A model generated the notes under the pieces. It saw only the letters and a list, made by a program, of their open reading frames with translations. It searched no databases and was not told the DNA's origin. A stretch of DNA of 64,000 nucleotides from an uncultured bacterium (GTDB lineage: Bacteria; Fidelibacterota; Marinisomatia; Marinisomatales; UBA1611): positions 256,001 to 320,000 of the forward strand of contig CALSPG010000005.1 of the NCBI GenBank assembly GCA_943788175.1, written 5' to 3'. Made by a program: the position numbers and the translations under genes. Below, piece by piece: positions 614 to 22,828 of this stretch (its first letter is position 1; each line of letters begins with the position of its first letter).

Positions 614-624
614 ATTATAAATAT

Positions 625-1224: not shown

Positions 1225-2051
1225 TTAGAGAACTTTTGAAAGTTGTTGAAGGTGTTGAAACATCTGATGGCGCTGGAGTAAAGCTGAGAAGAATCATTGG
1301 TGGTCCCGAGTTAAATATGTTTGACCCTTTTTTACTTTTTGATGAATTTGGAAGTGACAACCCAGATGATTACATGGCCGGATTCCCCGCTCACCCGCAC
1401 CGCGGATTTGAAACAGTTACCTATATGTTAAATGGTAAATTTAAACATAAAGATTCTTCTGGGAACGAAGGTATCCTAACTGATGGTTCAGTGCAGTGGA
1501 TGACTGCAGGAAGAGGGGTTATACATAGCGAAATGCCTGAAAAAACAGATGGTTTAGCAAGAGGGTTTCAATTATGGTTAAATCTTCCAAAAAATTTAAA
1601 AATGATAGATCCAGCATATAATGATATTCATCCTGACGATATCCCTTGTGTATTAATTAAGCAAGGTGAAGTAAAAGTAATCTCAGGTATTTTTGATGGT
1701 GTTGAGGGTCCTGGTCGGCCTCATACTGGAATGTTTTACTTCGATATAAAACTTAATGCAGGGGGCTTTATCGAGTTTCCGGTAGATGACCTTTGGAATA
1801 CCTTTATTTATGTTTATTCTGGCAGTGCAAATATTGAAAATAGAAGAGTTTATAAAGGTCAGTTAGGTCTTTTTAAAGACAGTGGAATGATTAAATTTAG
1901 CGCCGAAGATTCATCGAATTTACGATGTGTTGTTATCGGCGGTGAGCCTCTCAATGAGCCGGTGGCAAGAGGGGGTCCATTTGTCATGAATACTAAGGCT
2001 GAAATAATGAAAGCATTTAGTGATTATCAAGAAGGAGTATTAACAAAATAA
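1221..2051 (+). CDS. Pirin family protein
   Basis: DPFLLFDEF, GFPAHPHRGFETVTY, WMTAGRGVIHSE, GPFVMN. Confidence 0.95.
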   Translation: MIRELLKVVEGVETSDGAGVKLRRIIGGPELNMFDPFLLFDEFGSDNPDDYMAGFPAHPHRGFETVTYMLNGKFKHKDSSGNEGILTDGSVQWMTAGRGVIHSEMPEKTDGLARGFQLWLNLPKNLKMIDPAYNDIHPDDIPCVLIKQGEVKVISGIFDGVEGPGRPHTGMFYFDIKLNAGGFIEFPVDDLWNTFIYVYSGSANIENRRVYKGQLGLFKDSGMIKFSAEDSSNLRCVVIGGEPLNEPVARGGPFVMNTKAEIMKAFSDYQEGVLTK

Positions 2052-2052
2052 T

Positions 2053-2733
2053 ATGAATAAAATTTATAGATACAGTTATTTGACCTTAGTTACTGCTTCG
2101 TTTTTTGTGCTGCCTAATTGTTCTGGTAAAAAGAAACTGGATGATAGCTATAAGAAACCTATTAATACTCTATCTGAAAACTCTATAAGCTTAGCTTCTG
2201 GACAATACGAATTTGCCAAAACTTCTAGTGAAGTGCTCTGGGAATGTATGTGGCTAGGAGGAGCAAAGCACAATGGCAGTGTTCAGCTTATTGAGGGAGC
2301 TTTGGATATTTCCAAGAGCGGTCAAATAAGCGGTGCTTTTGTTGTTAGTTTAGATTCTATTAAGTGTTTTGATTTAAAAAATAAAGGTACAAATCAAAAA
2401 CTTATCAGTCACCTTAAAAGTGATGATTTTTTTGATGTTGAAAACTATCCAAAAGCGACTATTCAATTATTAAATGCTGAGCCTACAGGCGGTAATAATT
2501 TTAGATTTGAGGGCGACCTTATGATAAAGGGGAAATCTCACCCAATAGTATTTAATGGTCAAGTAATAGATCATCAAACTTATTATGAAGCTAGTTTAGA
2601 TCTGGTTTTTGATAGATCAAAATATGATGTCAGATACCGATCTGCTAGCTTATTTTCTGACCTCGGGGATAGAATAATCGCAGATGATGTCAAATTAAGT
2701 ATAAATGTGAATCTCAATAGATTAGAAAGATAA
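2053..2733 (+). CDS. YceI-like (polyisoprenoid-binding) lipoprotein
   Basis: HLKSDDFFDVENYP, GDLMIKG, DRSKYDV. Lipobox-like LPNC. Confidence 0.85.
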   Translation: MNKIYRYSYLTLVTASFFVLPNCSGKKKLDDSYKKPINTLSENSISLASGQYEFAKTSSEVLWECMWLGGAKHNGSVQLIEGALDISKSGQISGAFVVSLDSIKCFDLKNKGTNQKLISHLKSDDFFDVENYPKATIQLLNAEPTGGNNFRFEGDLMIKGKSHPIVFNGQVIDHQTYYEASLDLVFDRSKYDVRYRSASLFSDLGDRIIADDVKLSINVNLNRLER

Positions 2734-2736
2734 AAG

Positions 2737-3270
2737 GTGATGAATACCAAAATTAAAATAATCATCAATATCGTGGGCTTTTATATTGGGTGGTGGGGTT
2801 GTATTCTTGGGTCTTCAAACGGGTATCCATACATAGGTCCGCTTTTAATGCTTGTCTTTATAATTATTCATGGAAAATATTTTATTGGTAATGCAAAAGA
2901 ATTACAATTAATAGTCATAATGGGGTTAGTTGGTACTCTCGTTGACAGCTGTCTTTTCTTTTCACAATCTTTTGTATATGCGGGAGCTTATTCAGAAAAT
3001 CTATTTATTGCGCCTTTATGGATTACGGCAATGTGGGCAGGTTTTGCCGCTACGGTTAACCATTCAATGACTTTTTTTAAAGGTAAATGGATCCTTATGA
3101 TTGTCGCTGGTGCAATATTTGGGCCAGCAGCCTACTACACAGGCGAAGGCTTTGGCGCCATAACATTTCAATTGTCTCCTTTGTTATCAACTTTAATTAT
3201 TGGTGCTGTTTGGGCTGTTGCTATGCCATTGGTATTTTTTATAAATGAGAAGCTAGGATTAGGTGGTTAA
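2737..3270 (+). CDS. DUF2878-like membrane protein
   Basis: NIVGFYIGWWGC, PLWITAMW, GAIFGPAAY. Usual neighbour of cfa/DUF1365 clusters. Confidence 0.75.
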   Translation: MMNTKIKIIINIVGFYIGWWGCILGSSNGYPYIGPLLMLVFIIIHGKYFIGNAKELQLIVIMGLVGTLVDSCLFFSQSFVYAGAYSENLFIAPLWITAMWAGFAATVNHSMTFFKGKWILMIVAGAIFGPAAYYTGEGFGAITFQLSPLLSTLIIGAVWAVAMPLVFFINEKLGLGG

Positions 3271-3820
3271 TATTTTGAAAAAGTACACACTCACACTGGT
3301 TCTTTCTCTTTTAATTTATTCTAATTGTGAGGGTTTTATGAGCGATAATAAGAAATTTGGAGAATTAGAGACAGTTGACTATGTTGACTTAAAAAGATTT
3401 ATGGGAGATTGGTATGTAATTGCAAATATACCTACCTTCATTGAAAAAGGAGCTGTAAATGCTATTGAGTCGTACAGGCTTGACTCTAAAGGTAGGGTTC
3501 AAACTACTTTTACTTTCAGAAAAGACTCTCTAACTGGTCCTCAAAAAAAGTATAATCCAACAGGCTTCATTTACAATAAAGAAACAAACTCTGAATGGAG
3601 AATGCAGTTCCTATGGCCATTTAAATCACCTTTTTTGATTATTGACCTCGATGAAAAATACAATTACACTGTTATAGGTGTACCGAATAGAAAGTATGTT
3701 TGGATAATGGCGAGAAACCATGTTCTAGATGATAAGGTTTATAATGAAATAATTTCTAAACTTGAAAAAGTTGGTTATGACATCACCCAAATTCAAAAAA
3801 TTGAGCAGAATTGGGACTAG
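3263..3820 (+). CDS. blc: Bacterial lipocalin (Blc-like)
   Basis: VDLKRFMGDWYVIA lipocalin motif, QFLWPFK, YVWIMAR. Confidence 0.9.
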   Translation: MVNILKKYTLTLVLSLLIYSNCEGFMSDNKKFGELETVDYVDLKRFMGDWYVIANIPTFIEKGAVNAIESYRLDSKGRVQTTFTFRKDSLTGPQKKYNPTGFIYNKETNSEWRMQFLWPFKSPFLIIDLDEKYNYTVIGVPNRKYVWIMARNHVLDDKVYNEIISKLEKVGYDITQIQKIEQNWD

Positions 3821-3851
3821 TCTTTTCTATGCCTAAAGTTTAGTCCATTTA

Positions 3852-5099
3852 ATGAAATTAGCAATAATAGGTTCTGGTATCTCTGGATTGACAGCTGGCC
3901 ATTTGTTAAATAGAAAACATGACATATCTATTTTTGAAGCAAATGATTACATCGGTGGACACACACATACGCATAATTTAAAGGTTAGAAATAAAGACTA
4001 TTTAATTGACACTGGGTTTATCGTATATAATGAAAGAACATATCCTAGTTTTATAAATTTATTAGACAAATTGGGTGTCGAACGACAGCTTTCTACGATG
4101 GGCTTTAGCGTGAAGTCTACTAGCGAAGATTATGAATATTCAGGTGAGTCAATAAATAGCCTGTTTGCGAAAAGATCAAATATTTTTCGTTTAAGCTTTT
4201 TAAAGATGCTCTATGAAATGTATAAATTTGGTAAGGAAGCAGATTCAAGTGGTTTAGGCTTAAATGCTTCGACCACTCTAGGTGAATATTTAAAAGAAAA
4301 AAAGTATTCAAAAGAGTTTATTCATTATTTTATTACGCCAATGGGTGCGGCAATCTGGTCAACACCAGCAAACAAAGTACTAGACATGCCTGCATATTTT
4401 TTCATTAAATTTTTTTACAACCATGGCATGCTCGAAATATCTAATCGGCCTAATTGGTGGGTTATAAAAAATGGCTCTTCTCAGTACATAAGTAAAATCA
4501 TTAAAGGCTTTGAAGAAAAAATTTATTTATCATCACCAATCAAAAAGGTTGTAAGAACAGGTGATGGCATTGAATTATTTTTAGTTAAAAATGATAAAAA
4601 ATTAAACTTTGACGCTGTTATTTTTGCTACGCATAGTGACCAAGCTCTTAGTCTATTAGAGTCTCCATCTGATTTAGAAGAGGAAATACTTAAATCATTT
4701 CCTTATCAAAAAAATGAAGTTCTTTTGCATACAGATGCTACGGTTTTACCTAAGAGAAAATTAGCTTGGGCCAGTTGGAACTATCAGCTTGATGCTGATC
4801 CAAGTGCACCAGTAATTTTAACGTATAATATGAATATTCTACAATCAATTCAAAGTGATCAAACTTTTTGCGTGACTCTAAATGACCATGATTCAGTCGA
4901 TCAAAGTAAAGTAATCAAGAAGTTAAGCTATGATCACCCCTTGTTTACGGTGGACGCTGTAGCAGCGCAAAAAAGGAAACATGAAATTAGCGGTATAAAT
5001 AATACTTACTATTGCGGGGCATATTGGAGAAATGGTTTTCATGAAGACGGCGTAGTTAGTGCGTTGGATGTTTGTGAACAGTTCGGGGAAATATTGTGA
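3852..5099 (+). CDS. FAD-dependent oxidoreductase, UfaD-like fatty acyl desaturase
   Basis: GSGISGL Rossmann fold, DTGFIVYNERTYP, AWASWNY, CGAYWRNGFHEDG. Coupled to DUF1365 and cfa genes. Confidence 0.85.
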   Translation: MKLAIIGSGISGLTAGHLLNRKHDISIFEANDYIGGHTHTHNLKVRNKDYLIDTGFIVYNERTYPSFINLLDKLGVERQLSTMGFSVKSTSEDYEYSGESINSLFAKRSNIFRLSFLKMLYEMYKFGKEADSSGLGLNASTTLGEYLKEKKYSKEFIHYFITPMGAAIWSTPANKVLDMPAYFFIKFFYNHGMLEISNRPNWWVIKNGSSQYISKIIKGFEEKIYLSSPIKKVVRTGDGIELFLVKNDKKLNFDAVIFATHSDQALSLLESPSDLEEEILKSFPYQKNEVLLHTDATVLPKRKLAWASWNYQLDADPSAPVILTYNMNILQSIQSDQTFCVTLNDHDSVDQSKVIKKLSYDHPLFTVDAVAAQKRKHEISGINNTYYCGAYWRNGFHEDGVVSALDVCEQFGEIL

Positions 5100-5860
5100 A
5101 TTTATCAACCGAACATTTTCTATATACGGGTATTGTTAAGCATCGTAGATATACCCCATTCAATAGAGAGTTTTCTTATCCTATTTTTATGCTTTATCTT
5201 GATATAAATGATTTAAATAATGTAATGGAAAAATCAATTTTGTGGAATGTTAATAAAGCAGCAATGGTTTCATTTAATAGGAATGATTATCATAATGCAA
5301 AGACAAAATCTCTTGACCAGGCTGTCCGAGATACAGTTCAAAAAAAAGTTGGAGACAGACCTACCGGTAAAATCAGAATGCTGGCCCACCTCCGATATTT
5401 TGGTTATTGTTTTAATCCTGTAACTTTTTATTATTGTTTCAATCTCGAAGATAATAAGGTTGATTTTATTTTAGCGGAGGTTACAAATACACCGTGGGGA
5501 GAGAGGCACTCATACGTCTTAAGTGCTTCAAAAGATTCAAAGGAAAAAATCAAATCAACAATGAAGAAAGAACTTCATGTATCGCCTTTTTGGGACATGG
5601 ACCATCTGTATGACTGGAGTTTTAGCAGTCCGACAGAAAAGCTAGGTGTTTATATGAAAAATTTTAAAGAAGGGGAAAAAGTTTTTGATGCTACGCTTAA
5701 TTTGAAGAGACTTATTTTAAGTAAGAAGAGTTTATTGGTTACGATTTTTAAATTTCCATTTATGACGATAAAAGTCGTCTTTTGGATACATCTTCAAGCT
5801 TTTTTTTTATGGCTTCGTGGCGCAACTTTCTTTATCCATCCAAGCAAAACTAACAACTAA
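5096..5860 (+). CDS. DUF1365 protein (UfaO-like)
   Basis: HRRYTP, RYFGYCFNPVTFYYC, EVTNTPWGERHSY, KELHVSPF. Confidence 0.9.
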   Translation: MNLSTEHFLYTGIVKHRRYTPFNREFSYPIFMLYLDINDLNNVMEKSILWNVNKAAMVSFNRNDYHNAKTKSLDQAVRDTVQKKVGDRPTGKIRMLAHLRYFGYCFNPVTFYYCFNLEDNKVDFILAEVTNTPWGERHSYVLSASKDSKEKIKSTMKKELHVSPFWDMDHLYDWSFSSPTEKLGVYMKNFKEGEKVFDATLNLKRLILSKKSLLVTIFKFPFMTIKVVFWIHLQAFFLWLRGATFFIHPSKTNN

Positions 5861-5878
5861 TTTATAGAGAGATTTTAA

Positions 5879-7150
5879 ATGGCGAAAAAATTTTCAATTG
5901 AACAAGCTGCGTCTAGTACAACAATAAAAAGTAAGCCGAGTATTTTGGCGAAAATTTTTAAAAATTTAATATTATCACAATTTAGAAAAATTAATCATGG
6001 ATGTATTATTTTAAACGAAGGTAATAAAAAGATTATATTTGGTGACCAAGGGTCATCTTTAAAAGCAGAGGTAAATATTTATTCAGATGAATTTTACATT
6101 TTGGCTGGTAGCGGCGGGGACCTTGGAATTGCAGAGGCTTATGCTGCGGGTTACTGGGACGCAGATGATATGGTAAAACTAATTCAAATTGTAATTAAAA
6201 ATCAGGAAGTACAAAAAAGCTTAGAAGGGGGCCTAGCAAAATTAATTAGTCCAATTAATAGGTATATCCATAGGTCTCGTAGAAATACAGTTTCAGGTAG
6301 TAAAGAAAATATTGTAGCGCATTATGATTTAAGCAATGAGTTTTTTCAGACATGGTTAGATAAAAGCATGACTTACTCATGTGCTATTTTTGAACCAGAA
6401 GATTTATCCTTATTTGATGCTTCAAAAGAAAAGTTAGATCGTATTTGCCGCAAATTAGATATCCAAGCTGAAGATCATGTTGTTGAAATAGGAACCGGTT
6501 GGGGTAGCTTTGCTGTACATGCTGCGAAACAATATGGTTGTCGAGTAACAACAACTACGATTTCCAACGAGCAGCACGCTTATGTTTCTAATTTAATTGA
6601 AAAGGAAGGTCTGAGAGATAAAATAACATTGCTAAAAAATGATTACAGAGAGATTAAAGGACAATATGATAAACTTGTTTCTATTGAAATGATTGAGGCA
6701 GTTGGTTATAATTTTATACAGCAATTTTTTCAAACATGTTCAGATTTGCTTAAGCCCAATGGCTTGATGGCAATACAAGGGATTACTTATCACGAGCAGG
6801 GATTTGATAATCATCTTAATTCTGTTGATTTTATCAAAAAATATATTTTCCCGGGTTCAAATCTTATTTCAGTTAATCATGTTCTATCAGTTATTAAAGA
6901 TTTTACTGATCTTTCTTTAGTTCATTTAGAGGATATAACAAAATATTATGCTGAGACTTTAAAATTATGGAGGGAAAAATATAAAAAGGAGATGAGCAAA
7001 ATAAAAAAAATGGGATATAGTGATGAGTTTTTGAGAATGTGGGATTACTATTTTATTTATTGTGAGGCTGGGTTTAGGGAAAGATTTATTGGTGATGTTC
7101 AGCTTGTTATGGCGAAACCAAAAAACAAAAATATTCAAATAAACTATTAA
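5879..7150 (+). CDS. cfa: Cyclopropane-fatty-acyl-phospholipid synthase family methyltransferase (UfaM/Cfa-like)
   Basis: NIVAHYDLSNEFF, MTYSCA, EIGTGWG, SIEMIEAVG, FIKKYIFPG, YCEAGF. Confidence 0.9.
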   Translation: MAKKFSIEQAASSTTIKSKPSILAKIFKNLILSQFRKINHGCIILNEGNKKIIFGDQGSSLKAEVNIYSDEFYILAGSGGDLGIAEAYAAGYWDADDMVKLIQIVIKNQEVQKSLEGGLAKLISPINRYIHRSRRNTVSGSKENIVAHYDLSNEFFQTWLDKSMTYSCAIFEPEDLSLFDASKEKLDRICRKLDIQAEDHVVEIGTGWGSFAVHAAKQYGCRVTTTTISNEQHAYVSNLIEKEGLRDKITLLKNDYREIKGQYDKLVSIEMIEAVGYNFIQQFFQTCSDLLKPNGLMAIQGITYHEQGFDNHLNSVDFIKKYIFPGSNLISVNHVLSVIKDFTDLSLVHLEDITKYYAETLKLWREKYKKEMSKIKKMGYSDEFLRMWDYYFIYCEAGFRERFIGDVQLVMAKPKNKNIQINY

Positions 7151-7157
7151 AAAAACT

Positions 7158-8198
7158 ATGATAAAAAATTTAATTGATTTAGCAGAGAAAGGCATTTTAC
7201 CGGACTTTTTAATTCGTAGCGGAATTAGAAGAATGCAAAAAGAAAGAATTTTATGGTCGAAGTCTAAGACTGTTTCGGAGGTTGAAAAGCATCATCAGAA
7301 TTGGGTTGATGAGATGAAAAAAAGCTCAATTGCTTATGTTCCTGAGAAAGCAAATTCGCAGCATTATGAAGTGCCTCCAGCTTTTTTTGAAAATGCTCTT
7401 GGGGTCCACCTTAAGTACAGTTCTGGTTATTGGCCAGAGGGTATTAGTACGCTTGATGATTCTGAGTTGGCGATGTTAGAGTTAAGCGCTGAACGTGCAG
7501 AAATTTCAAATGGGGATCAAATTCTTGAATTGGGTTGTGGTTGGGGTTCTTTGACTATGTATATGGCAAAAAAATATCCTGACAGCTCAATTACGGCTGT
7601 TAGCAATTCTAGAGATCAAAGAAAATTCATAGAGGCGAAGTGTAAAAAGAGATCTATAAATAATGTAAAAGTAATTACAAAAGACATGAATGACTTCACA
7701 ATTGAAGAAAAATTTGATAAAATTGTTTCAATTGAAATGTTTGAGCACATGAGAAATTATGAGCAATTATTAGATAAGGTTGCTAGCTGGTTAAAACCAG
7801 GTGGAAAATTATTCATTCATATTTTTACACATAAAACATTAGTATATCCTTTCACTGAAGATGGTGAGGGTGATTGGATGGGGAGGAATTTTTTCAGCGG
7901 CGGCATTATGCCATCGCATCAGCTTCTATTATATTTTCAAAATAAATTGAATATTGAAGAGAGCTGGCGTTTTAATGGCTCACATTATGAGCAGACATCA
8001 CTTGCCTGGCTTAAAAAAATGGATAGTAATAAAAAAGAAATTATGAGCATTTTTGAAAATACTTATGGAGCAGGAGATGCTAAAATATGGTTTCAAAGAT
8101 GGAGAATTTTCTTTATGGCTTGCGAAGTCTTATTTGGTTATGATGGTGGCAAAGAATGGGGAGTTTCACATTACAGGTTTGTAAAATCTGGCAAATAG
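7158..8198 (+). CDS. Second CMAS-family SAM-dependent methyltransferase (coclaurine NMT-like clade)
   Basis: ANSQHYEVP, LKYSSGYW, LELGCGWGS, SIEMFEHMRN, RWRIFFMAC. Confidence 0.85.
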   Translation: MIKNLIDLAEKGILPDFLIRSGIRRMQKERILWSKSKTVSEVEKHHQNWVDEMKKSSIAYVPEKANSQHYEVPPAFFENALGVHLKYSSGYWPEGISTLDDSELAMLELSAERAEISNGDQILELGCGWGSLTMYMAKKYPDSSITAVSNSRDQRKFIEAKCKKRSINNVKVITKDMNDFTIEEKFDKIVSIEMFEHMRNYEQLLDKVASWLKPGGKLFIHIFTHKTLVYPFTEDGEGDWMGRNFFSGGIMPSHQLLLYFQNKLNIEESWRFNGSHYEQTSLAWLKKMDSNKKEIMSIFENTYGAGDAKIWFQRWRIFFMACEVLFGYDGGKEWGVSHYRFVKSGK

Positions 8199-8216
8199 CT
8201 TGTATAATTAAATATG
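8179..8216 (+). promoter_or_regulatory. sigma70-like promoter, leaderless architecture, for the desaturase
   Basis: TTGTAA(8179-84)-18 nt-TATAAT(8203-08)-5 nt-ATG(8214). No SD. Confidence 0.55.
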
Positions 8217-8942
8217 ACGATTATAATATTATTTATTTTACATTGGTATTCTTCGCTGTTTTTTCAAACAGTGTTCTTGCACCGTTATGCTTCCCATCAA
8301 ATGTTTACTATGTCAAAAACATGGGAGCGAATATTTTTTTTCTGTACGTTTTTAACGCAAGGTTCCTCTTTTCTTAATCCTAGAGCTTATGCAATACTCC
8401 ATAGGCTTCACCATAAATATAGTGACACAAAAAATGATCCGCATTCCCCTATATTTTCAAAAAATATTATAAAACTAAATCTTAATACCATAAAGCACTA
8501 TGAGTCCGTAAGACTCAATAAAAAAGACTATTCAAAATATGACACTGATGTTCCGAGGTGGCCATCTTTAGAAAAGATATCTGACCACTGGATAACAAGA
8601 TTATCTTTTGTAGTTTTTTACAGTCTAATCTATTTAAAGTTTACCACTGCAAATTGGCAGTATGCTCTGCTACCTATTCATTTTATCATGGGGCCTCTTC
8701 ATGGTTCTATAGTCAATTGGTGTGGGCACCGATACGGGTATACAAATGATAAAAAAACAAAAGACAATTCAAAAAATACACTACCTGTCGATTTTTTAAT
8801 GATGGGTGAACTTTTTCAAAATAATCACCACAGTAATCCATCTAAAATGAAATTTTCGCGACGATGGTTTGAGTTAGATCCCGGATACATTGCTGCGAAG
8901 ATACTTTCAAAAATAAATATACTCAGAATAAAAAACGCTTAA
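8214..8942 (+). CDS. Delta-9-type membrane fatty acid desaturase
   Basis: His boxes HRYASH, HRLHH, QNNHH. DPHSP, NWCGH. Confidence 0.9.
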   Translation: MTIIILFILHWYSSLFFQTVFLHRYASHQMFTMSKTWERIFFFCTFLTQGSSFLNPRAYAILHRLHHKYSDTKNDPHSPIFSKNIIKLNLNTIKHYESVRLNKKDYSKYDTDVPRWPSLEKISDHWITRLSFVVFYSLIYLKFTTANWQYALLPIHFIMGPLHGSIVNWCGHRYGYTNDKKTKDNSKNTLPVDFLMMGELFQNNHHSNPSKMKFSRRWFELDPGYIAAKILSKINILRIKNA

Positions 8943-8995
8943 AACGCTCAAAAGTACTTGACATTTACCATTTAGGCTAAATAATATATGCCATG
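8931..8995 (+). promoter_or_regulatory. Direct-repeat operator plus sigma70 promoter (site 1)
   Basis: AAAACGCTT AAAACGCTC (8932-8949), 8 nt, TTGACA(8958-63)-18 nt-TAATAT(8982-87)-5 nt-ATG(8993). Confidence 0.75.
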
Positions 8996-9247
8996 GCAAA
9001 TAACGTTCAAAGTATTGAAAACAACATAACGGTTAAAAAGTATGGTAGTCATGTTAAGATTAGCATGGGAGCTACATATTGTATCATTTCTTGTTCAATT
9101 CATAAGATATCTGAATTCGTCAAAGTTGTAGATAACATGTTCTTAGACGGATGGGATGCTACTTCTGGAATTACATCAGAAGACGGTATGGTGTTTCAAT
9201 CGATGACAAAAATGTCAATAAATAATAACCAATCAAACAGTAATTAA
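8993..9247 (+). CDS. Small hypothetical protein, C-terminal half DUF1737-like
   Basis: FVKVVDNMFLDGWDATSGITSEDGMVFQSMTK resembles the DUF1737 pattern. First gene after the promoter. Confidence 0.55.
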   Translation: MANNVQSIENNITVKKYGSHVKISMGATYCIISCSIHKISEFVKVVDNMFLDGWDATSGITSEDGMVFQSMTKMSINNNQSNSN

Positions 9248-9258
9248 GGAGTTTTGTT

Positions 9259-9501
9259 ATGACAATATTACAAGCTGTCGCTGCTGGGTTAGAAAACACA
9301 GAAAAGCGCAAAGAGCCAAAGAAAAAAGCAGATAGGTATTTTCTAGACGGAAAAGTTGCCGACAGAGAGTTAAAAGCTTGCAACCTATGTAAAATCGTAT
9401 GGCAAAAGCACGTTTTCAATGGTAAAACAACAATCAAGTATTATGATGAAGTTCCAAGATATGGAAAATCTCAGCAAATATGCCCAAGTTGTAGTCAATA
9501 A
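9259..9501 (+). CDS. Small putative zinc-ribbon protein
   Basis: SD TAAGGAG. CNLC...CPSC cysteine pairs. Confidence 0.65.
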   Translation: MTILQAVAAGLENTEKRKEPKKKADRYFLDGKVADRELKACNLCKIVWQKHVFNGKTTIKYYDEVPRYGKSQQICPSCSQ

Positions 9502-10213
9502 TTGAATATTTTAATAGTAAATGGATCTGGGGCCATTGGGTCCTCCATTATCAAGGGCTTGAATGATAAGTCTGTAAACCTAATCATCACTTCAAGCACA
9601 GGCGAAGATGTGCATGGCAACAAGACAATGCATTGGAAATATTCAGGTAGTGATTCTGTTGAATCGCTCTTCGAATCCATCAAAAACGAGCATAGTCAAC
9701 TTGATTCAGTTGTAAATTGTCTAGGATCAATTTTCTCTAAAGCCAGCTCACTTAACGAGTGTACAAGATTTTGATGAAGTTTTGGATATTAATTTAAAGT
9801 CTTCCTTTCTTATACTGAAAAACTCAGTACCAATGATGAGGAAAAATGGTGGAAATCTTCTTTTTTTCTCATCAGCAGCATCAAGCATAGGAATGGCTAA
9901 TCATGAAGCCATCTCTGCAGCCAAAGGAGGTATAGAGGCTATGGTAAGGTCCGCGGCTGCAACATATGCTAAGAATAATATTAAAGTAAATGCTATTGCT
10001 CCGGGTCTAGTTGATTCTAATTTATCAAAAAATATAGTTTCTAATGAAGCGGCATTAAATGTGTCAAAGAGAATGCACAGTGTTGGGAGAATTGGGACGC
10101 CTGATGATATTTCCAAATTTGCTATTCCATTAATTGTCGATAATAGTAGTTGGGTAACTGGTTCAATCATTAATATTGATGGAGGACTTTCAACTACTAA
10201 AATAGCGAGTTAA
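9502..10213 (+). CDS. SDR family oxidoreductase, split by a +1 frameshift near 9736
   Basis: GSGAIG Rossmann motif. Removing one base gives GSIFLKPAHLTSVQDFDEVLDINLKS, continuing to SAAKGG and VNAIAPG. Confidence 0.85.
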
Positions 10214-10216
10214 TAA

Positions 10217-10513
10217 ATGGATAGTATAGATCATATTGCAGTACAGACAGATTCAATAATTGATTCTGTAAAATGGTATAAAGAGATGTTTTCATGTGAA
10301 GTTGAATATGAAGATGATTCTTGGGCATTATTAAAATTTGAAAACACAAAGCTGGCCCTAGTCATTCCGAACCAGCACCCACCACACATTGCTGTTAAAA
10401 GGGATAACTTAGAGAGCTTTGGCTCTCCAGTCAAACATAGAGATGGTTCAGAATCAGTGTACGTAAAATCCCCAGACAACAATACATTCGAGTTGATTAG
10501 ATATCCTAAATAA
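10217..10513 (+). CDS. VOC/glyoxalase family protein
   Basis: IDHIAV...WY, HIAV, SVYVKSPDNNTFELI. Confidence 0.85.
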   Translation: MDSIDHIAVQTDSIIDSVKWYKEMFSCEVEYEDDSWALLKFENTKLALVIPNQHPPHIAVKRDNLESFGSPVKHRDGSESVYVKSPDNNTFELIRYPK

Positions 10514-11053
10514 ATGAAGCGTTACACAGTAATATTCCTAATTTTTATTGCAAACTTAATTTTTGCAGGAAGTCAAAACATGACGGAAAACATTTATAAC
10601 ATTAAAATAAAAAATGTTTATGGAGAAGAAACATCATTAAAAGTTTATCAGGGAAAGAAAATTCTAATTGTTAACGTTGCTTCAAACTGCGGATATACTA
10701 GTCAATATAAAGGCCTTCAACAGTTACAAGATCAGTACGGAGATAAGCTACAAGTCATTGCTTTCCCTTGTAATGATTTCGGTTCTCAAGAACCTGGAAC
10801 AGACAAACAAATTGCTCAGTTTTGCGAATCTAATTACAATGTAAAATTTCCAGTAATGAGCAAAATAAACATTAAAAGCAAGCCTATCCATCCAATTTAT
10901 GAATGGTTGTCAACCAGTGAGCTAAATGGGTGGAATGATTCAAAACCTAGGTGGAACTTTTACAAATACCTAATTGATGAAAATGGAAATTTAATCAAAT
11001 CCTTTGGAAGCAATACTAGTCCTTTAAGTTCTGAAATTATTCAAAGTTTATAG
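10514..11053 (+). CDS. gpx: Glutathione peroxidase (Cys type), with signal peptide
   Basis: NVASNCGYTSQY, FPCNDFGSQEPG, WNFYKYLID. Confidence 0.95.
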   Translation: MKRYTVIFLIFIANLIFAGSQNMTENIYNIKIKNVYGEETSLKVYQGKKILIVNVASNCGYTSQYKGLQQLQDQYGDKLQVIAFPCNDFGSQEPGTDKQIAQFCESNYNVKFPVMSKINIKSKPIHPIYEWLSTSELNGWNDSKPRWNFYKYLIDENGNLIKSFGSNTSPLSSEIIQSL

Positions 11054-11079
11054 TAATTAATACTTAAAGGTATTGAATT

Positions 11080-12564
11080 TTGGATGCTACAATTATTTTT
11101 CCTCATCAGTTATTTTCGAGCTCAAGTGCATTAAAAAGAAGTCGTAAGACTTTTATTATCAGAGACCCTTTATTTTTTAATGATAAAAAATATCCAGTTC
11201 GGTTTCATAAAAATAAAATTCTTCTTCATATTCTTTCCACAGATTACTATAGAAGTGAGTTGGTTGAAAGGGGATATGATGTCCAATTAGTTACTGAAAA
11301 AGAATTAATTGGAGAGAACTATTTTGATTCATTTTTTAAAAAAAACAATATCAATGAAGTTCATTATTGTGACCCAGTTGATTACACAATTACTAAAAGA
11401 CTAGACCACTCGATTAATAGTCTATCCATTAAATCATATAAATATGATACACCAGGTTTTATGCTAGAAGAATCAGACGTCTTTGATCATTTTACCAATA
11501 AGAAGTCACATTTTATGGCTGCCTTTTATAAGAAACAGCGTAAAAGATATAACATTCTAATGAATGATGATGGAACTCCTGTTGGCGGAAAGTGGAGTTT
11601 TGATCATGAGAACAGGAAGCGTTTTCCAAAAACAATGGAATCGCCAAAAATTTCTCAGATTATGTATCAAAATGATAAGTTTGTGCAGGCTGAAGACTCG
11701 GTCAGTGCATTTTATAATGACAATCTTGGTAATATGGATAATTTTAACTATCCTGTTACAAGAAGTCAGGCATTGAATTCTTTTCATTCATTCCTGGAAG
11801 AACGTTTAATTAACTTTGGCGCTTATGAAGATGCTATTGTCAAAGATGAATCGACCCTATTTCATAGTATCATTACTCCTTATTTAAATATCGGATTGAT
11901 AACTCCAAATGAGATTATACAACAAGTTTTAGATTTTTCATCCAATAATTCTATTCCACTGAATTCTCTGGAAGGTTTCATTAGGCAAATAATTGGTTGG
12001 AGAGAATTTATGCGAGGTATATATGTCGCTGATGGTGTCAAGCAGCGGAATTCAAATTTTTGGAATTACAATAGAGCAATGCCAAAGTCATTTTATGATG
12101 GAACAACAGGCATAGAGCCCTTAGATGACACTATCAAGAAATGTTTAAACAGTGGTTATGCTCATCATATTGAGCGGTTAATGATTTTAGGGAATATGAT
12201 GTTATTAATAGGTATTAAGCCAAATGCTGTGTACAAATGGTTTATGGAAATGTTTGTTGATTCTTATGATTGGGTTATGGTCCCCAATGTATATGGGATG
12301 AGTCAATTTGCTGATGGTGGTTTATTAGCCACAAAACCATATATAAGTGGAAGTAATTACATTTTAAAAATGAGTGATTATAAAAAAGGCGACTGGTGTC
12401 CCATTTGGGATTCTCTTTATTGGGGATTTGTTGATCGTAATAGAGAATTTTTTAGAAAAAACCCTCGCATGAGTATGATGGTTTCAATGTTTGATAAAAA
12501 AGATGATGCCTCAAAAAAGAGGCTATTCGAAACATCTCAAAATTTTATTGAAAGTTTATTTTAA
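11080..12564 (+). CDS. Bacterial (6-4) photolyase / BCP family, PhrB-like without FeS cluster
   Basis: IFPHQLF, GGKWSFDHENR, EGFIRQIIGWREF, GYAHHIERLM, KPYISGSNYILKMS. Confidence 0.9.
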   Translation: MDATIIFPHQLFSSSSALKRSRKTFIIRDPLFFNDKKYPVRFHKNKILLHILSTDYYRSELVERGYDVQLVTEKELIGENYFDSFFKKNNINEVHYCDPVDYTITKRLDHSINSLSIKSYKYDTPGFMLEESDVFDHFTNKKSHFMAAFYKKQRKRYNILMNDDGTPVGGKWSFDHENRKRFPKTMESPKISQIMYQNDKFVQAEDSVSAFYNDNLGNMDNFNYPVTRSQALNSFHSFLEERLINFGAYEDAIVKDESTLFHSIITPYLNIGLITPNEIIQQVLDFSSNNSIPLNSLEGFIRQIIGWREFMRGIYVADGVKQRNSNFWNYNRAMPKSFYDGTTGIEPLDDTIKKCLNSGYAHHIERLMILGNMMLLIGIKPNAVYKWFMEMFVDSYDWVMVPNVYGMSQFADGGLLATKPYISGSNYILKMSDYKKGDWCPIWDSLYWGFVDRNREFFRKNPRMSMMVSMFDKKDDASKKRLFETSQNFIESLF

Positions 12565-12686
12565 CAACACTGTAAAAAGATAAAAGGGTATAACAATCAC
12601 TCCAATTAAAATAAGTGAAACTACAGACCATTTAAAAAACGTTATAAAAAAGTATTTAATAGCAAAAAAAATTTTATTTTTTATTT

Positions 12687-13178
12687 TCACTTATACTTTC
12701 TATATCTGGAAATCACATCAATTATAATTGTATCATAATCTTTAATTTTAAGATGCAACTTATCATTGACAACTTTCGCTGAACCACTTAGAAGTTTGTC
12801 CTTGTAAGTCCAATTTTGATCTCTGTCGACGGCCCAGTTGAAAGTGTTGATTTTGCTATCAGACCAATCTTGTTCACCGGTCCATTCAATGTTACCTAGT
12901 AATTGAGTGAACGTAGGCCTTGTTAAATCTTTCGCGTTCGAATAATTTTTTTCAAAATCAGTTTTGGCATATGGGTGCTTCTCAATCAATACAGTACCGC
13001 TAGTAGATTTTATAAATAATCTCATATAATCTGTCCAATCTTGGAACCAGATTTCTGCAGGTCCTATATTAGAAGAGTCTGAATCCCAAACATAATGAGG
13101 TATGTTTTTATAGTCACTTTTATCTTCTGCATTTAAAAGTGTTGCTAGGTAGATGAATGTAATTATTATTTTTATCAT
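12687..13178 (-). CDS. Hypothetical secreted protein
   Basis: 163-aa ORF with signal peptide (LNA|ED). Own promoter TTGAAT-18-TAATTT-5-ATG. Confidence 0.7.
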   Translation of the reverse strand: MIKIIITFIYLATLLNAEDKSDYKNIPHYVWDSDSSNIGPAEIWFQDWTDYMRLFIKSTSGTVLIEKHPYAKTDFEKNYSNAKDLTRPTFTQLLGNIEWTGEQDWSDSKINTFNWAVDRDQNWTYKDKLLSGSAKVVNDKLHLKIKDYDTIIIDVISRYRKYK

Positions 13179-13213
13179 GTAATAAATTAACTCACTGTTT
13201 GATAAGTATTCAA
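13176..13213 (-). promoter_or_regulatory. Divergent leaderless sigma70-like promoter
   Basis: Minus strand: TTGAAT(13213-13208)-18 nt-TAATTT(13189-13184)-5 nt-ATG(13178). Confidence 0.55.
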
Positions 13214-13227
13214 ATGTTTTATATCAA

Positions 13228-13292
13228 AAAAAGTTCAAAACGCTCAAAAAAACCTTTACCTTTTGTCCATTTTTTTATTACTATCTGAAATG
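13228..13292 (+). promoter_or_regulatory. Direct-repeat operator plus promoter of the regulator gene (site 2)
   Basis: AAAAAGTTC AAAACGCTC (13228-13245), 9 nt, TTTACC(13255-60)-18 nt-TACTAT(13279-84)-5 nt-ATG(13290). Confidence 0.65.
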
Positions 13293-14172
13293 AAATATTT
13301 AAATTCTAAGGAAGTATCAGACATAATAGGTAGTAAACATCTCTACTTTAAAGAGGTGGACTGACAATGGCACTATTGGTTGCCATAAAACTGCAGGAGG
13401 TCACAGAAAATTCACTATGCAAAATGTTAGAGAATACTACAGCTCTAACAAAAAAGCTTCTAAAAGTGAAAATGTTGTATTAGAAAACTTCGAGCATAAA
13501 AAGATTTTTGAATTAATTAAAAAAGGTAATTTATCTGAACTGAGCTACAAGCTTGCAGATGCAAGTATAGAATCTGATGAAGCGACTGTTAAAACCATTA
13601 TTTCTGGTTCCTACATGAATAATATTGATGTAGAAACTTTATTTGATCAAGTTGTTGATCCTGGTAGTATGATTGTAGAAAAAGCACTACATGAAGGTTA
13701 CTTATCTCACACTGAAGCTTTTATTAGTAGAAAAATTATTACACGGGCTACAGAATCTCTAAATGATCACAAGCCAAATGGTTCACTTAATGGTAAGTAT
13801 GCTCTATGTGTTAATTTTGAAGATAATCTACCTGATTTAGGAGTGGTCATGTCAGAAGTCATTTTGAGGCATAAGGGTTATAATGTTTTTAATACAGGTT
13901 CGCATGCTGAGCTTGGAGACCTTGAAAAAGTGATTAAAAATAAAAAGATAGATCTTGTTGTTTTTTATCTCTGCAATATGCAATGCTGTATGTCAATTGT
14001 TGGGGACAACATTAATAAGACTGCAAAACAAGTGACTTCTATTTTTGAAATATCCGAAAAAATGAAAGTTGATGTAATATTTGGTGGGTTAGGCATAGAG
14101 CTTTTGCCAAATATTTCTAATACAATATCTAAAACATTTATTACGTTCAAAGAGCTAAACAAACTAGTTTAG
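13290..14172 (+). CDS. MerR/BldC-like HTH plus cobalamin-binding-fold (CarH/CarA/LitR-like) transcriptional regulator; +1 frameshift at about 13332
   Basis: Reconstructed N-terminus MKYLNSKEVSDIIGVNISTLKRWTDNGTIGCHKTAGGHRKF joins ORF 13417..14172, which has a helical cap and a B12-binding-like Rossmann domain (LGVVMSEVILRHKGYNVFNTG). Confidence 0.8.
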
Positions 14173-14191
14173 TTTACTTCCTCAATTAATT

Positions 14192-15544
14192 ATGGGTGAA
14201 AATATGGGAAGAATGCGTCAAATTAGAACTGGGCCATTTAATGGCAAGTGCGTTCTCTACTGGATGGTAAGAGACAAAAGAGTTTGTGATAATTGGGCTC
14301 TATTAGAAGCTCAAAAAAAAGCAATTGAGAATAAAGTTCCCTTAATAGTAGTTTTTAATTATCACAATTCATATCAAGATGCGAATGTAAGGCAATATAG
14401 TTTTTCATTTTATGGGCTTCAAGAAGTGGATAAAGATTTGAAAAAACTCAATATCCAATTCTTTTTATTAAGTGGGCCAGCCAATGAGACTATTTCTAAG
14501 TTTATTGAGGATTACAAAGTAGGTTTTTTAATTACAGATTTTAGCCCGCTTAAAGTTTATACAAAAAGATTAAGAACTGTAGTTAAGAATACCACTATTC
14601 CCATTACCCAGGTTGATACCCATAATATAATTCCAGTTTGGAATGCATCTCCAAAAAAAGAATATGCAGCTTATACAATAAGGCCCAAAATAAAAAAATT
14701 ACTGCCGATATATTTAACAGATATCCCTCAATTAAAGAGACATCCTGTACAAAGTGATTTTTCAAGCGTTGAAATAAATTGGAAACAAGTTGTAGAGTCA
14801 ATGAACATAGATAGAAGCGTGAAGTCTGTAGACTGGATAAATCCGGGTGAAAAAAATGCAAGAAACCTTCTAGGAAAATTGAAAACACAATTAATTGATT
14901 ATAATGAAAAAAGGAATAATCCAAATCTGCACAAATTGTCAAATATGAGTCCGTATTTTCATTTTGGTCAAATTTCGCCTCAGCGTGTAGCTTTTGAAAT
15001 AAAAAATTCAAACCTCTCTGATGTCGATAAAGAAGCTTTTTTGGAGGAGATGATTGTTAGAAGAGAATTAGCGGACAACTTTTGTTTTTATGAAGAAAAT
15101 TATGACTTTTTTGAGGGCTTTCATGCTTGGTCACAAAAGACATTAAATGAACATAGAAATGATGAAAGAGAATATGTTTATTCCCCGCAAGAGTTTGAGG
15201 CATCAACAACGCATGATGAATTATGGAATGCAGCACAAGATGAAATGAAGACTAGGGGTAAAATGCATGGTTTTATGCGGATGTATTGGGCAAAAAAAAT
15301 TCTGGAGTGGAGCCCGAGTCCTGAGTTAGCGCAGCAAACGGCAATAGATCTAAACGATAAATACCAACTTGATGGAAGAGACCCTAATGGTTACACCGGC
15401 ATAGCATGGAGCATTGGAGGCATTCATGATAGAGCCTGGTTTGAAAGACCTGTCTTTGGAAAAGTTCGATACATGAATTATAATGGATGCAAAAGAAAGT
15501 TCAATGTGGATCAATACATAGAAAGCAATAAAATAATTAGTTGA
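14192..15544 (+). CDS. phr: Class II CPD DNA photolyase
   Basis: VLYWMVRDKRVCDNWAL, LSNMSPYFHFGQIS, GKMHGFMRMYWAKKILEW, DGRDPNGY. Confidence 0.95.
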   Translation: MGENMGRMRQIRTGPFNGKCVLYWMVRDKRVCDNWALLEAQKKAIENKVPLIVVFNYHNSYQDANVRQYSFSFYGLQEVDKDLKKLNIQFFLLSGPANETISKFIEDYKVGFLITDFSPLKVYTKRLRTVVKNTTIPITQVDTHNIIPVWNASPKKEYAAYTIRPKIKKLLPIYLTDIPQLKRHPVQSDFSSVEINWKQVVESMNIDRSVKSVDWINPGEKNARNLLGKLKTQLIDYNEKRNNPNLHKLSNMSPYFHFGQISPQRVAFEIKNSNLSDVDKEAFLEEMIVRRELADNFCFYEENYDFFEGFHAWSQKTLNEHRNDEREYVYSPQEFEASTTHDELWNAAQDEMKTRGKMHGFMRMYWAKKILEWSPSPELAQQTAIDLNDKYQLDGRDPNGYTGIAWSIGGIHDRAWFERPVFGKVRYMNYNGCKRKFNVDQYIESNKIIS

Positions 15545-15579
15545 ATGTGCAACGATTTCATATTTAACTTTATGATGTG
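15541..15579 (+). promoter_or_regulatory. Putative marR promoter with an inverted repeat in the spacer
   Basis: TTGAAT(15541-46)-18 nt-TAACTT(15565-70). AATGTGCAA-CGA-TTTCATATT (15544-64) is a 7/9 inverted repeat. Confidence 0.4.
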
Positions 15580-16038: not shown

Positions 16039-16060
16039 TTGAATCAGCAACTAATAATCT

Positions 16061-17491: not shown

Positions 17492-17508
17492 CATGAAGCG
17501 AGAAAAAA

Positions 17509-18639: not shown

Positions 18640-18643
18640 ATTT

Positions 18644-21600: not shown

Positions 21601-21808
21601 ACTTACTTCGGTTACCACGTTTGTGGGTTTATTCCCGCTATTAATCGAAAAGAGCGTGCAAGCACAGTTTCTAGTTCCAATGGCGGTTTCACTAGCTTTT
21701 GGTGTATTATTTGCAACTTTTATTACACTAATCTTGGTGCCAACTAGTTATTTAATTATTGAGGATATGAAAGATTTTTCCGCAAAACTATTTAATAAAA
21801 ACGCTTAA
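18644..21808 (+). CDS. RND efflux permease (AcrB family)
   Basis: 1054 aa. GIVVDDAVVVGENI, RFRPILLTS. Confidence 0.95.
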   Translation: MKNIIRWFILNTVAANLLMIFIIIAGLFTLSRLRMEVFPDITIPIINVSVLYPGASPEDIEESICVKVEEQVQGINGLKRITSSSNESYGSINIEVENGYDIDEVKDEVKSLVDAITSFPDDAEKPTVKSFDGQPEVITIAVHGNVDEVSLLNIAEKVRDEVSDLPSITQTRLGKKPKEISIEISENTLQKYGLSFDYVASKIRSSSMDVPGGAIETYDGEILIRSKGQAYSGDEFGAIPVLSLSDGSTVLLRDIANIVDGFQDVEYDIKFNSEPALLIRVYRTGEQNALDIADEVHKYIIKKNPTMPPGISLTTMKDESVILRGRIELLTENAYLGLVLVLIVLALFLKPKLAAWVSLGIPISFMGGFWLLPLFDVSINMISLFTFILVLGIVVDDAVVVGENIHIFRKRGLNAVDAALEGAYQVAKPVIFAVLTTMVTFSPMILVEGAMGKIWRIIPVVTIVVLIFSLIESLTILPAHLAHMKDDDEEEQNRFLSWWSKVQLVIHNGLQSFIKNQYNPLLRLALKNRGNTIAISISILIFTIGFVASGFIKFNFFPPLEADIVIAGVEYPEGTPVQITKVGLEQVEKSAYRLKDSLEVLYPDKEIFINMVSTAGDQPIKTQSARGPGNLDANFFGSHLAECVIELAPGEERPVSTIEISKIWRELTGPIAGVKQVTFDSDLFSSGAPIEIQLSSISRGDLKEVTSILKDKLQTYAGVFDIKDSFSAGKDEIKLSLRPEAQNYGITMASLARQVRQAFYGEEVQRVQRGRDEIKVFLRYPKEERASLNNLEQMNVRVGNDIEVPLGQVASSELSSGYSTITRTDRKRSISVTADVDLSEANANEILAKFEKEHILPILESYPNVIYSFEGEQREQRDTLGSLFKNFALALFIVYVLLAIPFKSYSQPLIIMSAIPFGFTGAVIGHVIMGMNLAVLSIIGIVALSGVVVNDSLVMVDFINRYRQEDGKSCLEAALAAGPRRFRPILLTSVTTFVGLFPLLIEKSVQAQFLVPMAVSLAFGVLFATFITLILVPTSYLIIEDMKDFSAKLFNKNA

Positions 21809-21853
21809 AACGCTCATTATTGATTGACAAGGTCAGCTGGTTTCAATTAAATT
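21797..21853 (+). promoter_or_regulatory. Direct-repeat operator plus sigma70 promoter (site 3)
   Basis: AAAACGCTT AAAACGCTC (21798-21815), 8 nt, TTGACA(21824-29)-18 nt-TAAATT(21848-53). The 20-mer is identical to 8931-8950. Confidence 0.75.
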
Positions 21854-21896
21854 ATAAATAATATATTTGTGGCATTTAAATAATAAGGTATAAAAA

Positions 21897-22826
21897 ATGA
21901 AAGTTGCAGTTTTTGGTGGCACTGGGTTCGTAGGTTCATACTTAATAGAGCATCTTCTTGAACAGGGTCATCATCCAAGGCTTCTAGTTCGTAAGGGCTC
22001 AGATAGTAAAGTGATTTCTTCTCAGAATTGTGAGATTATCAACGGTGACATCAATGATAAAAATTCAATTAAAGAAACTATTTCCGGTGTAGAAGCAGTT
22101 ATTTATACGATTGGAATTATTAGAGAGTTCAAATCAAAGGGCGTGACTTTTGAAAATGCCCACTTTGATGGAGCTGTTAAATGTATTGACGCTGCAGAAG
22201 AGGCAGGTGTAAATAAGTTCATTCTCATGAGCGCAAATGGTGTTTGCCCTGATGGGACGGGTTATCAAAAAACAAAATGGATGTCTGAACAATATCTTAA
22301 GAATACGAAATTGAATTGGACAATTTTTAGACCCTCCACAATTTTTGGAGATCCAAGAGGTAGCGGCCGTCCTGAATTTTGTTCGCAACTGAAAAAAGAT
22401 ATGATTGGTTTGCCATTTCCTGCTCCCCTTTTTCATGAGGGTCTTAATCCTTTTGATGCGGGAAATTTTTCTATGTCCCCGATTCATATTAAAGATGTCG
22501 CTAAAAGTTTTATCAGCTCGTTAAACAATAAAAAGCTAGAAAAAAAAACAATAGAGCTCGGGGGACAGGCTTTTACTTGGAAACAAATTATTAAAAATAT
22601 AGGCATAGCTTCTGGTAAAAATAAATTTATGGTTCCTGCGCCAGTATTTGCTGTCAAATTAGTTGCTAATATTTTAGATAGATTTAGTTGGTTTCCAGTT
22701 ACGGCTGACCAGTTAACCATGCTGGTTGAGGGCAATACTTGTGATTCTTCAAAGTTTTTTACTGAAAATGAATTAATACCAATTCCTTTTAATGAAGAAA
22801 ATCTTTCCTATCTAGGTAAAGATTAA
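21897..22826 (+). CDS. NAD(P)-dependent epimerase/dehydratase (NDUFA9-like atypical SDR)
   Basis: GGTGFVG, YQKTK, FRPSTIFG, PIHIKDVA. Confidence 0.88.
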   Translation: MKVAVFGGTGFVGSYLIEHLLEQGHHPRLLVRKGSDSKVISSQNCEIINGDINDKNSIKETISGVEAVIYTIGIIREFKSKGVTFENAHFDGAVKCIDAAEEAGVNKFILMSANGVCPDGTGYQKTKWMSEQYLKNTKLNWTIFRPSTIFGDPRGSGRPEFCSQLKKDMIGLPFPAPLFHEGLNPFDAGNFSMSPIHIKDVAKSFISSLNNKKLEKKTIELGGQAFTWKQIIKNIGIASGKNKFMVPAPVFAVKLVANILDRFSWFPVTADQLTMLVEGNTCDSSKFFTENELIPIPFNEENLSYLGKD

Positions 22827-22828
22827 TA

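Follow-up and report, generated by a model that had tools for sequence, protein, structure and literature searches.

The 64,000-nucleotide (nt) window analysed here (positions 256,001 to 320,000 of contig CALSPG010000005.1, assembly GCA_943788175.1) belongs to an uncultured SAR406 (Marinimicrobia) bacterium and carries a 20-mer, AAAAACGCTTAAAACGCTCA, in two exact copies on the + strand, at 8931-8950 and 21797-21816. This element is most likely the docking site of a regulator that resembles the vitamin-B12 sensors and coordinates DNA-photorepair and oxidative-stress genes in SAR406. Very probably, the 20-mer is an autoregulated operator. On balance, we favour the fuller reading in which the 20-mer serves as operator for the product of the gene at 13290-14172, a CarH/LitR-like regulator that would control a photo-oxidative-stress regulon as a repressing oligomer. 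We infer the identity of the binding protein, its head-to-tail mode of binding, the sign of the regulation and the signal from the comparisons given below.

The 20-mer consists of two head-to-tail 9-bp units, AWAW-CGCT-C, in which four A/T-rich positions are followed by CGCT and by C. A third copy with three mismatches, AAAAAAGTTCAAAACGCTCA, was found at 13227-13246. A fourth site is inverted and lies outside the window (G000:C5:463970), where it fronts a secreted DUF4397 protein with a type-IX sorting domain. The earlier note on this DNA had listed two copies; both are real, and the third and fourth sites had been overlooked. When the window was shuffled with its dinucleotides preserved, none of 100 shuffles gave a match to the 20-mer at three or fewer mismatches. 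The whole 2.27-Mb assembly (33% G+C) was scanned with a position-weight matrix, and four sites scored 28-30 bits with the next best at 19.3, the core columns of the matrix being circular since it was trained on pattern matches from relatives. The 20-mer is therefore not a generic genome-wide repeat, which was the outcome that the earlier note had set against its own proposal.

At both exact copies, 8 nt separate the second unit from a perfect TTGACA, which is followed by an 18-nt spacer and by TAATAT or TAAATT, as the earlier note had described. The bases between and around the two copies differ. The copy in front of the regulator gene has the same geometry, with 8 nt, CTTTAC, 18 nt, TTACTA and 6 nt to the ATG at 13290. 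In the region 8000-23000, the two TTGACA hexamers beside the 20-mer are the only perfect ones paired with a -10-like hexamer. Promoter-like matches as such barely exceed those of shuffles in this region (72 versus 59.3 ± 8.1), and TTGACA upstream of genes is at chance level genome-wide (38 found, about 33 expected by our estimate). The sites and the genes that they front are collected in Table 1.

Table 1. Operators, core promoters and genes of the putative regulon in the window
Feature	Position	Strand	Description
Operator O1	8931..8950	+	units AAAACGCTT (8932-8940) and AAAACGCTC (8941-8949); 30.0 bits
Core promoter P1	8958..8987	+	TTGACA 8958-8963, 18-nt spacer, TAATAT 8982-8987; best promoter-like match in 8000-23000
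P1 operon	8993..12564	+	open reading frames (ORFs) of 84 and 80 amino acids (aa), short-chain dehydrogenase/reductase (SDR), 98-aa ORF, glutathione peroxidase, DPRP protein
SDR gene of P1 operon	9502-10213	+	split into two ORFs
Glutathione peroxidase gene	10514-11053	+	P1 operon
Photolyase-related DPRP protein gene	11080-12564	+	P1 operon
Operator O2, putatively autoregulatory	13227..13246	+	units AAAAAGTTC (13228-13236) and AAAACGCTC (13237-13245); 28.0 bits
Core promoter P2	13254..13284	+	weak -35 CTTTAC/TTTACC, 18-nt spacer, -10 TTACTA/TACTAT
Regulator gene	13290..14172	+	winged helix-turn-helix (wHTH; HTH_17/MerR), CarH-type helical bundle, Rossmann domain
DNA photolyase gene	14192..15544	+	downstream of the regulator in the same operon; order kept in relatives
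MarR gene	15577-16038		with a resistance-nodulation-division (RND) efflux operon
Operator O3	21797..21816	+	units AAAACGCTT (21798-21806) and AAAACGCTC (21807-21815); 29.7 bits
Core promoter P3	21824..21853	+	TTGACA 21824-21829, 18-nt spacer, TAAATT 21848-21853
NmrA/NAD(P)-binding protein gene	21897..22826	+	309 aa; P3 target

The motif was then followed through 54 genomes of the family, many of which are incomplete and which, as relatives, are not independent. Orthologues of the regulator were found in 20 of them and distant paralogues in three more. The pattern GYTYAWWWCGCTCA occurred 121 times, compared to 17 times for the reversed control, and each of the 20 regulator-positive genomes had at least one match (85 in total). 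Among species representatives, the motif G(Y/A/C)(T/C)CAWAWCGCTC(A/n) stands 41-44 nt before the start codon at 37 of 38 orthologue loci, in line with the earlier note, which had named the 13290..14172 protein as the one to test for binding. Over 107 sites, the column counts gave the units [A/T x4]-C-G-Y-T-Y and [A/T x4]-C-G-C-T-C, with A/T at the unit positions 1-4 in 89-95% of the sites; the core of unit 2 was set by the search pattern. Conservation is concentrated in the G+C core CGCTC, whereas the A/T part varies. In species of the same genus, the exact 20-mer has been kept at the P1 and P3 loci while the spacers have diverged, which argues for selection rather than recent copying. Across genera, the motif is kept at a fixed distance from the -10 and from the start codon, and the intervening DNA has diverged. 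Comparison of the sequences thus strongly supports the view, already put forward in the earlier note, that the motif is a protein-binding site.

The only orthologue locus without the motif (L133 in genome G054) encodes a protein of 43% identity and is preceded by a different repeat, TTGCACGAWTTGCACGA, again with a period of 9 bp. In that genome, the repeat was found in five copies with 0-2 mismatches (C9:13754, 13822 and 18146; C31:4437 and 4505), including two tandem pairs. The wing motif of the protein reads GGNRFF in place of GGHRKF, and the repeat looks like a re-specified operator. Two canonical paralogues of the adenosylcobalamin (AdoCbl) type, L025 (G050) and L026 (G030), whose HTH is of the same kind, have 9-bp tandem repeats at the same position, ATAACGCCTATAACGCCT and the degenerate TTCGCTCGAAACACTCA. 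We link the protein to the motif because the autoregulatory position is conserved, because repeat and wing have changed together in L133, because the paralogues have 9-bp repeats as well and because the DNA-binding domain is BldC-like.

A +1 frameshift in 13325-13340 breaks up the regulator gene as assembled here, with MKYLNSKEVSDIIG in one frame and VNISTLKRW... in the next, whereas in all relatives examined it is a single open frame of 293-299 aa. An intact orthologue of the same genus (293 aa) matched HTH_17 (E 8.9e-7) and MerR_1 (E 2.6e-6), and a profile match to CtMerR (8jbs) covered the residues 5-266 with an E of 2.7e-20. The AlphaFold2 model of the same-genus orthologue had a pLDDT of 84.6, with the residues 232-237 of a cysteine-rich insert below 50. 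Its best Foldseek matches were full-length TtCarH (5c8f, 5c8e and 5c8d) and 8jbs, the latter with a TM score of 0.82 on the target and a root-mean-square deviation of 2.9. The modelled fold is that of CarH. Passages of the CtMerR paper give the AdoCbl signature as GxxW, EH and GxxH (PMC11796333). In the alignment, the signature (Wx9EH and the lower-axial His in E/DxH) was absent from the orthologue group and intact in the canonical CarH-type paralogues L025 and L026. The latter read KW..EEH and GDQHDLPL, whereas the orthologues have L/A..E(A/T)(F/Y) and an invariant NFEDNLPDLG with no lower-ligand His. The regulator is therefore not a member of class I, the AdoCbl photoreceptors. The orthologues carry an invariant LCxxQCC insert.

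For the DNA-binding domain, matches to the BldC chains 6amk and 6ama were obtained, with the weak E values of 7e-4 and 1e-3. Arg30 and His46 of BldC align with the invariant R22 and with H38, conserved in at least 90% of the orthologues, a correspondence taken from one hidden Markov model alignment (6amk). The repeat differs at the single orthologue whose residue 38 is N.

The geometry was examined at 63 sites from the window and 41 loci, and the -10 statistics were taken over 119 unique sites. Thirty sites have only a same-strand gene, with its start 16-121 nt downstream; 20 have only a divergent gene, with its start 2-28 nt from the 5' edge of the motif; ten have genes on both sides and three on neither side. 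At the forward sites, a -35 of the cTTGAC type follows after 7 nt in this genus or 8 nt in other genera, and the spacers measure 18 and 17 nt, respectively, so that the -10 begins 31±1 nt after GCTCA throughout. The 119 sites show a TAa..T signal at +32..+37. The -35/-10 spacers of 17-18 nt contain no conserved element. The earlier note had argued that this is not the classical MerR spacer site, and indeed the motif is a direct repeat upstream of the -35, outside the -35/-10 spacer, rather than a palindrome within a spacer of 19-20 bp. At most of the divergent sites inspected, the target strand carries a TTG-type -35 and, about 18 nt further on, a TAnnnT directly next to TGAGCG; the -35 sits within a conserved AATCTATTTG box. 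The operator should therefore cover about -6..+12 of these genes.

At many sites in other genera (loci L063, L070, L072, L076, L079-L081 and L093), a conserved 10-mer, CAAATAGATT, was observed at a distance of 27 nt behind the motif. It allows two readings, as a forward -10 (TAGATT at +32) and, on the opposite strand, as the -35 region (TTTG) of the divergent gene, and these sites may be overlapping face-to-face promoters.

The four sites in the genome tie together the regulator and the photolyase, the operon of SDR, glutathione peroxidase and cryptochrome-like protein, the NmrA-type reductase and the secreted DUF4397 protein. Overall, the forward targets are the regulator-photolyase operon, cryptochrome/photolyase, DUF2878-lipocalin-amine oxidase, DoxX, Rieske, AhpC/TSA, DUF2237, major facilitator superfamily and NmrA genes, and a conserved operon of 93-95-aa and 101-aa ORFs, SDR and glutathione peroxidase. 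The divergent targets recur in families as well, namely DUF4397 with a type-IX sorting domain, DUF6370 (once followed by photolyase), small TonB_C-like and PsiE. Photolyase genes were found under both architectures. Homologues of the P1 operon with the same motif are present in other genera, and the P3-NmrA arrangement is found in three further genomes of the genus (L082, L094 and L097). The gene content around the sites is typical of photo-oxidative defence, and judged by it the genes fronted by the motif look like a photo-oxidative-stress regulon. Parts of a pangenome study report that epipelagic Marinimicrobia gained photolyases and peroxide-stress genes (PMC6143742).

In the mechanism that we propose, each 9-bp unit would be read by one winged-helix domain and the domains would be arranged head-to-tail as in BldC. 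The conserved His38 of the wing would sit in the minor groove at the A/T positions, while the recognition helix would place Arg22 against the C-G pair of position 9 in the unit. At the inverted sites, the bound oligomer would directly block the -10/start region. At P1-P3, an oligomer at -61..-44 would extend over the adjacent -35 or deny RNA polymerase its upstream contacts. A change of the sensor domain triggered by light or an oxidant would release the regulator, presumably not by way of AdoCbl but through oxidative chemistry that light drives at the cysteine loop.

The operator probably represses. Strong promoters with a perfect -35 are typical of repressed stress genes. We favour a repressor because the inverted sites cover the start, because the -35 of P1 and P3 is unusually strong and because the characterised CarH, CarA and class II LitR proteins repress, as stated in passages of PMC9304148 for the first two and of PMC9758184 for the third. 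The earlier note had left the choice between an activator and a head-to-tail filament extending onto the -35. The head-to-tail arrangement fits a BldC-like domain, and the motif lying inverted on the -10/start of divergent genes tilts the reading towards repression. Several observations weigh against a repressing regulator of this kind. A simple steric repressor would not usually sit at -61..-44. The phasing of 31±1 nt is kept strictly even though the -35 slides by 1 nt, which predicts a stereospecific contact with RNA polymerase and hence activation. The regulator's own promoters and many of the CAAATAGATT sites are without a good -35, like activator-dependent promoters. A third or fourth repeat over the -35 was not seen, as the column statistics of the 119 sites show none that is clear beyond the -35/-10; degenerate units of this kind that appear plausible in single promoters, for example AAAAAGTTC, were rejected on these statistics. 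The circular core columns of the weight matrix, the weak BldC matches and the single alignment behind the residue correspondence belong on the same side. So do the genomes without a detected regulator, since 19 of the 34 have GYTYAWWWCGCTCA matches (36 in total). One of them, G013, at 88% completeness, has seven motif sites (on C2, C24, C39 and C43) and no match to the regulator. In this genome the regulator is probably unassembled, since the C2 cluster runs off the contig start where sister genomes carry the regulator.

With the same site and the same protein, the regulator could instead activate P1-P3 from -61..-44 through contact with RNA polymerase. It would then act in a dual manner and repress at the inverted sites, or the forward promoter would be the relevant one at all sites. 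We regard this as a serious alternative, less probable than repression. It would explain why the distance from motif to -10 is fixed in nearly all of the 119 unique sites, including those that have no -35 (TAGATT at +32..+37) and the weak regulator promoters, and the spacers of 17-18 nt are suboptimal. BldC reportedly activates some targets and represses others. Parts of the BldC paper describe a bending of the DNA upon this type of binding (PMC5859096). However, P1 and P3 already have a perfect TTGACA, and at the sites with a divergent gene only (20 of 63) the motif lies over the start of DUF4397, DUF6370 and TonB_C-like genes, where activation is implausible. Opposite signs would also split one function, since the photolyase genes stand under both architectures, and the characterised relatives are repressors.

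That another protein, for example the MarR protein encoded at 15577-16038, binds the site, or that the site is part of an alternative-sigma promoter and the CarH-like protein a mere member of the regulon, we consider improbable. The motif matches in the genomes without a regulator orthologue would be accommodated in this way. The fixed place of the motif before 37 of 38 orthologues speaks for the CarH-like protein, as do the changed wing and changed repeat at an unchanged 9-bp period in the divergent orthologue, and the register of the repeat matches the binding mode of BldC, whose DNA-binding domain is the closest one solved. The sites of MarR proteins are typically palindromes. For an alternative sigma factor, a spacing of 9 bp between the two copies does not allow them to serve as -35 and -10. 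An extracytoplasmic function (ECF) sigma promoter was rejected, as the cores are identical at 9 bp apart and no conserved box stands 16-17 nt after the first core. A Bacteroidota promoter, suggested by a SusC-type TonB receptor, with the boxes as -33 TTTG and -7 TAnnTTTG, was rejected likewise: TAnnTTTG is not enriched, with 100 occurrences compared to 96 of its reverse complement in 848 upstream regions based on crude ORF calls.

Least probable is that the 20-mer is no protein site at all, and is instead an UP-like element or phased A-tract, a terminator or transcript structure where the upstream genes end, or a recent duplication. The units do carry in-phase A4-5 tracts, and both exact 20-mers overlap the stop codons of upstream genes. 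Yet it is the CGCTC core that is conserved and the A/T part that varies, and the flanks differ while same-genus 20-mers are kept beside diverged spacers. The RNA folds no better than shuffles (z = 0.12, 0.66 and -0.06), there is no Rfam match and no terminator-like site was found at these places; an RNA element or terminator was rejected on the folds and the Rfam result.

The ORF calls used in the analysis came from our own scripts. Some further observations concern the surroundings of the sites. The TAA stop of the desaturase gene upstream of O1 (8940-8942) falls within the operator, and the same holds for the stop of the AcrB-type gene and O3 (21806-21808). In both genes, the T at unit position 9 makes the TAA stop, and desaturase and AcrB-type pump share the final codons K-N-A-stop, which are encoded by the first operator unit (8931-8942 and 21797-21808). 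These shared ends may be chance, or may go back to a promoter module that was placed over the ends of the genes. The desaturase closes a row of same-strand genes (14-8942) for tocopherol-cyclase-like, SOUL, pirin, YceI, DUF2878, lipocalin, amine oxidase, DUF1365, two cyclopropane-fatty-acid-synthase-type proteins and the desaturase. Within the window, no operator of at least 14 bits was found in front of this row; the DUF2878 operon of other genera does bear the motif. At P1, the first ATG is at 8993, so that the mRNA is probably leaderless or nearly so. After the NmrA-type gene, a 68-aa ORF (22829-23035) matches only the first 40 positions of AhpC/TSA and reads as a truncated or frameshifted peroxiredoxin gene.

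The RNA data consisted of Logan contigs from four metatranscriptome runs; contigs of this kind reveal neither transcript starts nor expression levels. A contig of run X15 is without one base at 9736 in the SDR gene, which makes an assembly indel or a strain difference the probable cause of the split in this gene. Another X15 contig joins 8925 to 20038 with 7 other letters between them; position 8925 is 6 nt before the first 20-mer, and the junction may be a strain rearrangement or an assembly chimera. In the runs X17-X19, the bin 8068-8601 was uncovered, the bin 9136-9669 had depths of 20.9, 39.3 and 48.4, and one contig starts at 21873. Transcription starting at P1 and P3 would fit this pattern, yet we did not count it as evidence because of the nature of the contigs.

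The SAR406/Marinimicrobia are abundant and uncultured. In a literature search that extended to journals other than subscription journals, we found no publication that describes, for Marinimicrobia, a regulator responding to light or oxidative stress or the DNA site of such a regulator. The present analysis gives a cis-element whose units and phasing are defined, together with a predicted regulon and a candidate protein; each of these can be tested in vitro from synthesised parts. The motif sites could be used for reading diel metatranscriptomes, and such parts may serve as compact light- or redox-responsive switches. For the CtMerR-type branch of the B12-photoreceptor relatives, the operator design proposed here is the first, and it links the CarH sensor scaffold to a BldC-style head-to-tail DNA binding. 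It is tempting to speculate, although we consider it rather doubtful, that a whole unrecognised clade of CarH-like regulators with BldC-type domains, including the CtMerR-type AdoCbl photoreceptors, generally uses tandem 9-bp head-to-tail repeats as its operators. In SAR406 of the surface ocean, a B12-free member with a cysteine loop would then be a phase-locked two-way switch, activating from -52 when forward and repressing over the start when inverted, and would run a daily photoprotection without cobalamin.

Among the known systems, CarA of Myxococcus xanthus is a B12-independent repressor of the CarH family, as we propose for the SAR406 regulator, being a CarH paralogue according to passages of PMC9304148. 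CarA binds a different operator and needs the antirepressor CarS. The class II LitR proteins PplR1 of Pseudomonas putida and PmlR2 of P. mendocina are described in parts of PMC9758184 as B12-independent repressors of photolyase, cryptochrome-like and fatty-acid-modifying genes. They consist of the helical bundle only, bind T(G/A)TACA...TGTACA and are released by a LOV partner, whereas the SAR406 regulator has retained the Rossmann domain and has a Cys-rich insert and a 9-bp direct-repeat site. With CarH of Thermus thermophilus, Bacillus megaterium and the Myxococcales, it shares the predicted fold, the putative autoregulation and tandem direct repeats at the promoters of photoprotective genes. 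The CarH repeats are 11 bp long (nnnnTnnACAn) and number three or four, one of them embedding the -35. Strong and degenerate repeats can be mixed in the CarH operators, as stated in passages of PMC9304148. In contrast, the SAR406 site has a 9-bp period and two strong CGCTC units, and lies 8 nt upstream of the -35 or inverted over the start. CarH needs AdoCbl, whereas the SAR406 regulator is without the Wx9EH motif and the lower-ligand His.

The closest solved relative is CtMerR of Chloracidobacterium thermophilum (8JBS/8JBT), which has the same GGHR-type wHTH. CtMerR binds AdoCbl and changes from a tetramer to a monomer in the light, whereas GxxW, EH and GxxH are missing from the SAR406 regulator. 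Passages of the CtMerR paper describe the sensor domain as a dark-state tetramer that falls apart in the light and mention an 'alternative DNA-binding site', which is not defined; in the passages searched, no operator or promoter is given (PMC11796333). BldC of Streptomyces (6AMA and 6AMK) has the closest solved DNA-binding domain. In parts of the BldC paper, each protomer is described as occupying one 9-bp direct repeat of the form AATTXXXX(C) in a head-to-tail array, where His46 enters the minor groove of the A/T stretch and Arg30 meets the C-G pair (PMC5859096). The register of an A/T quartet, four bases and C is the same at the SAR406 site, and R22 and H38 are the equivalents of Arg30 and His46 in the one alignment. 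BldC is a stand-alone domain of 68 residues that has no sensor, controls development and binds a varying number of repeats, whereas in the SAR406 regulator the domain is fused to a CarH-type sensor (293 aa) and the core of the repeat is CGCT-C.

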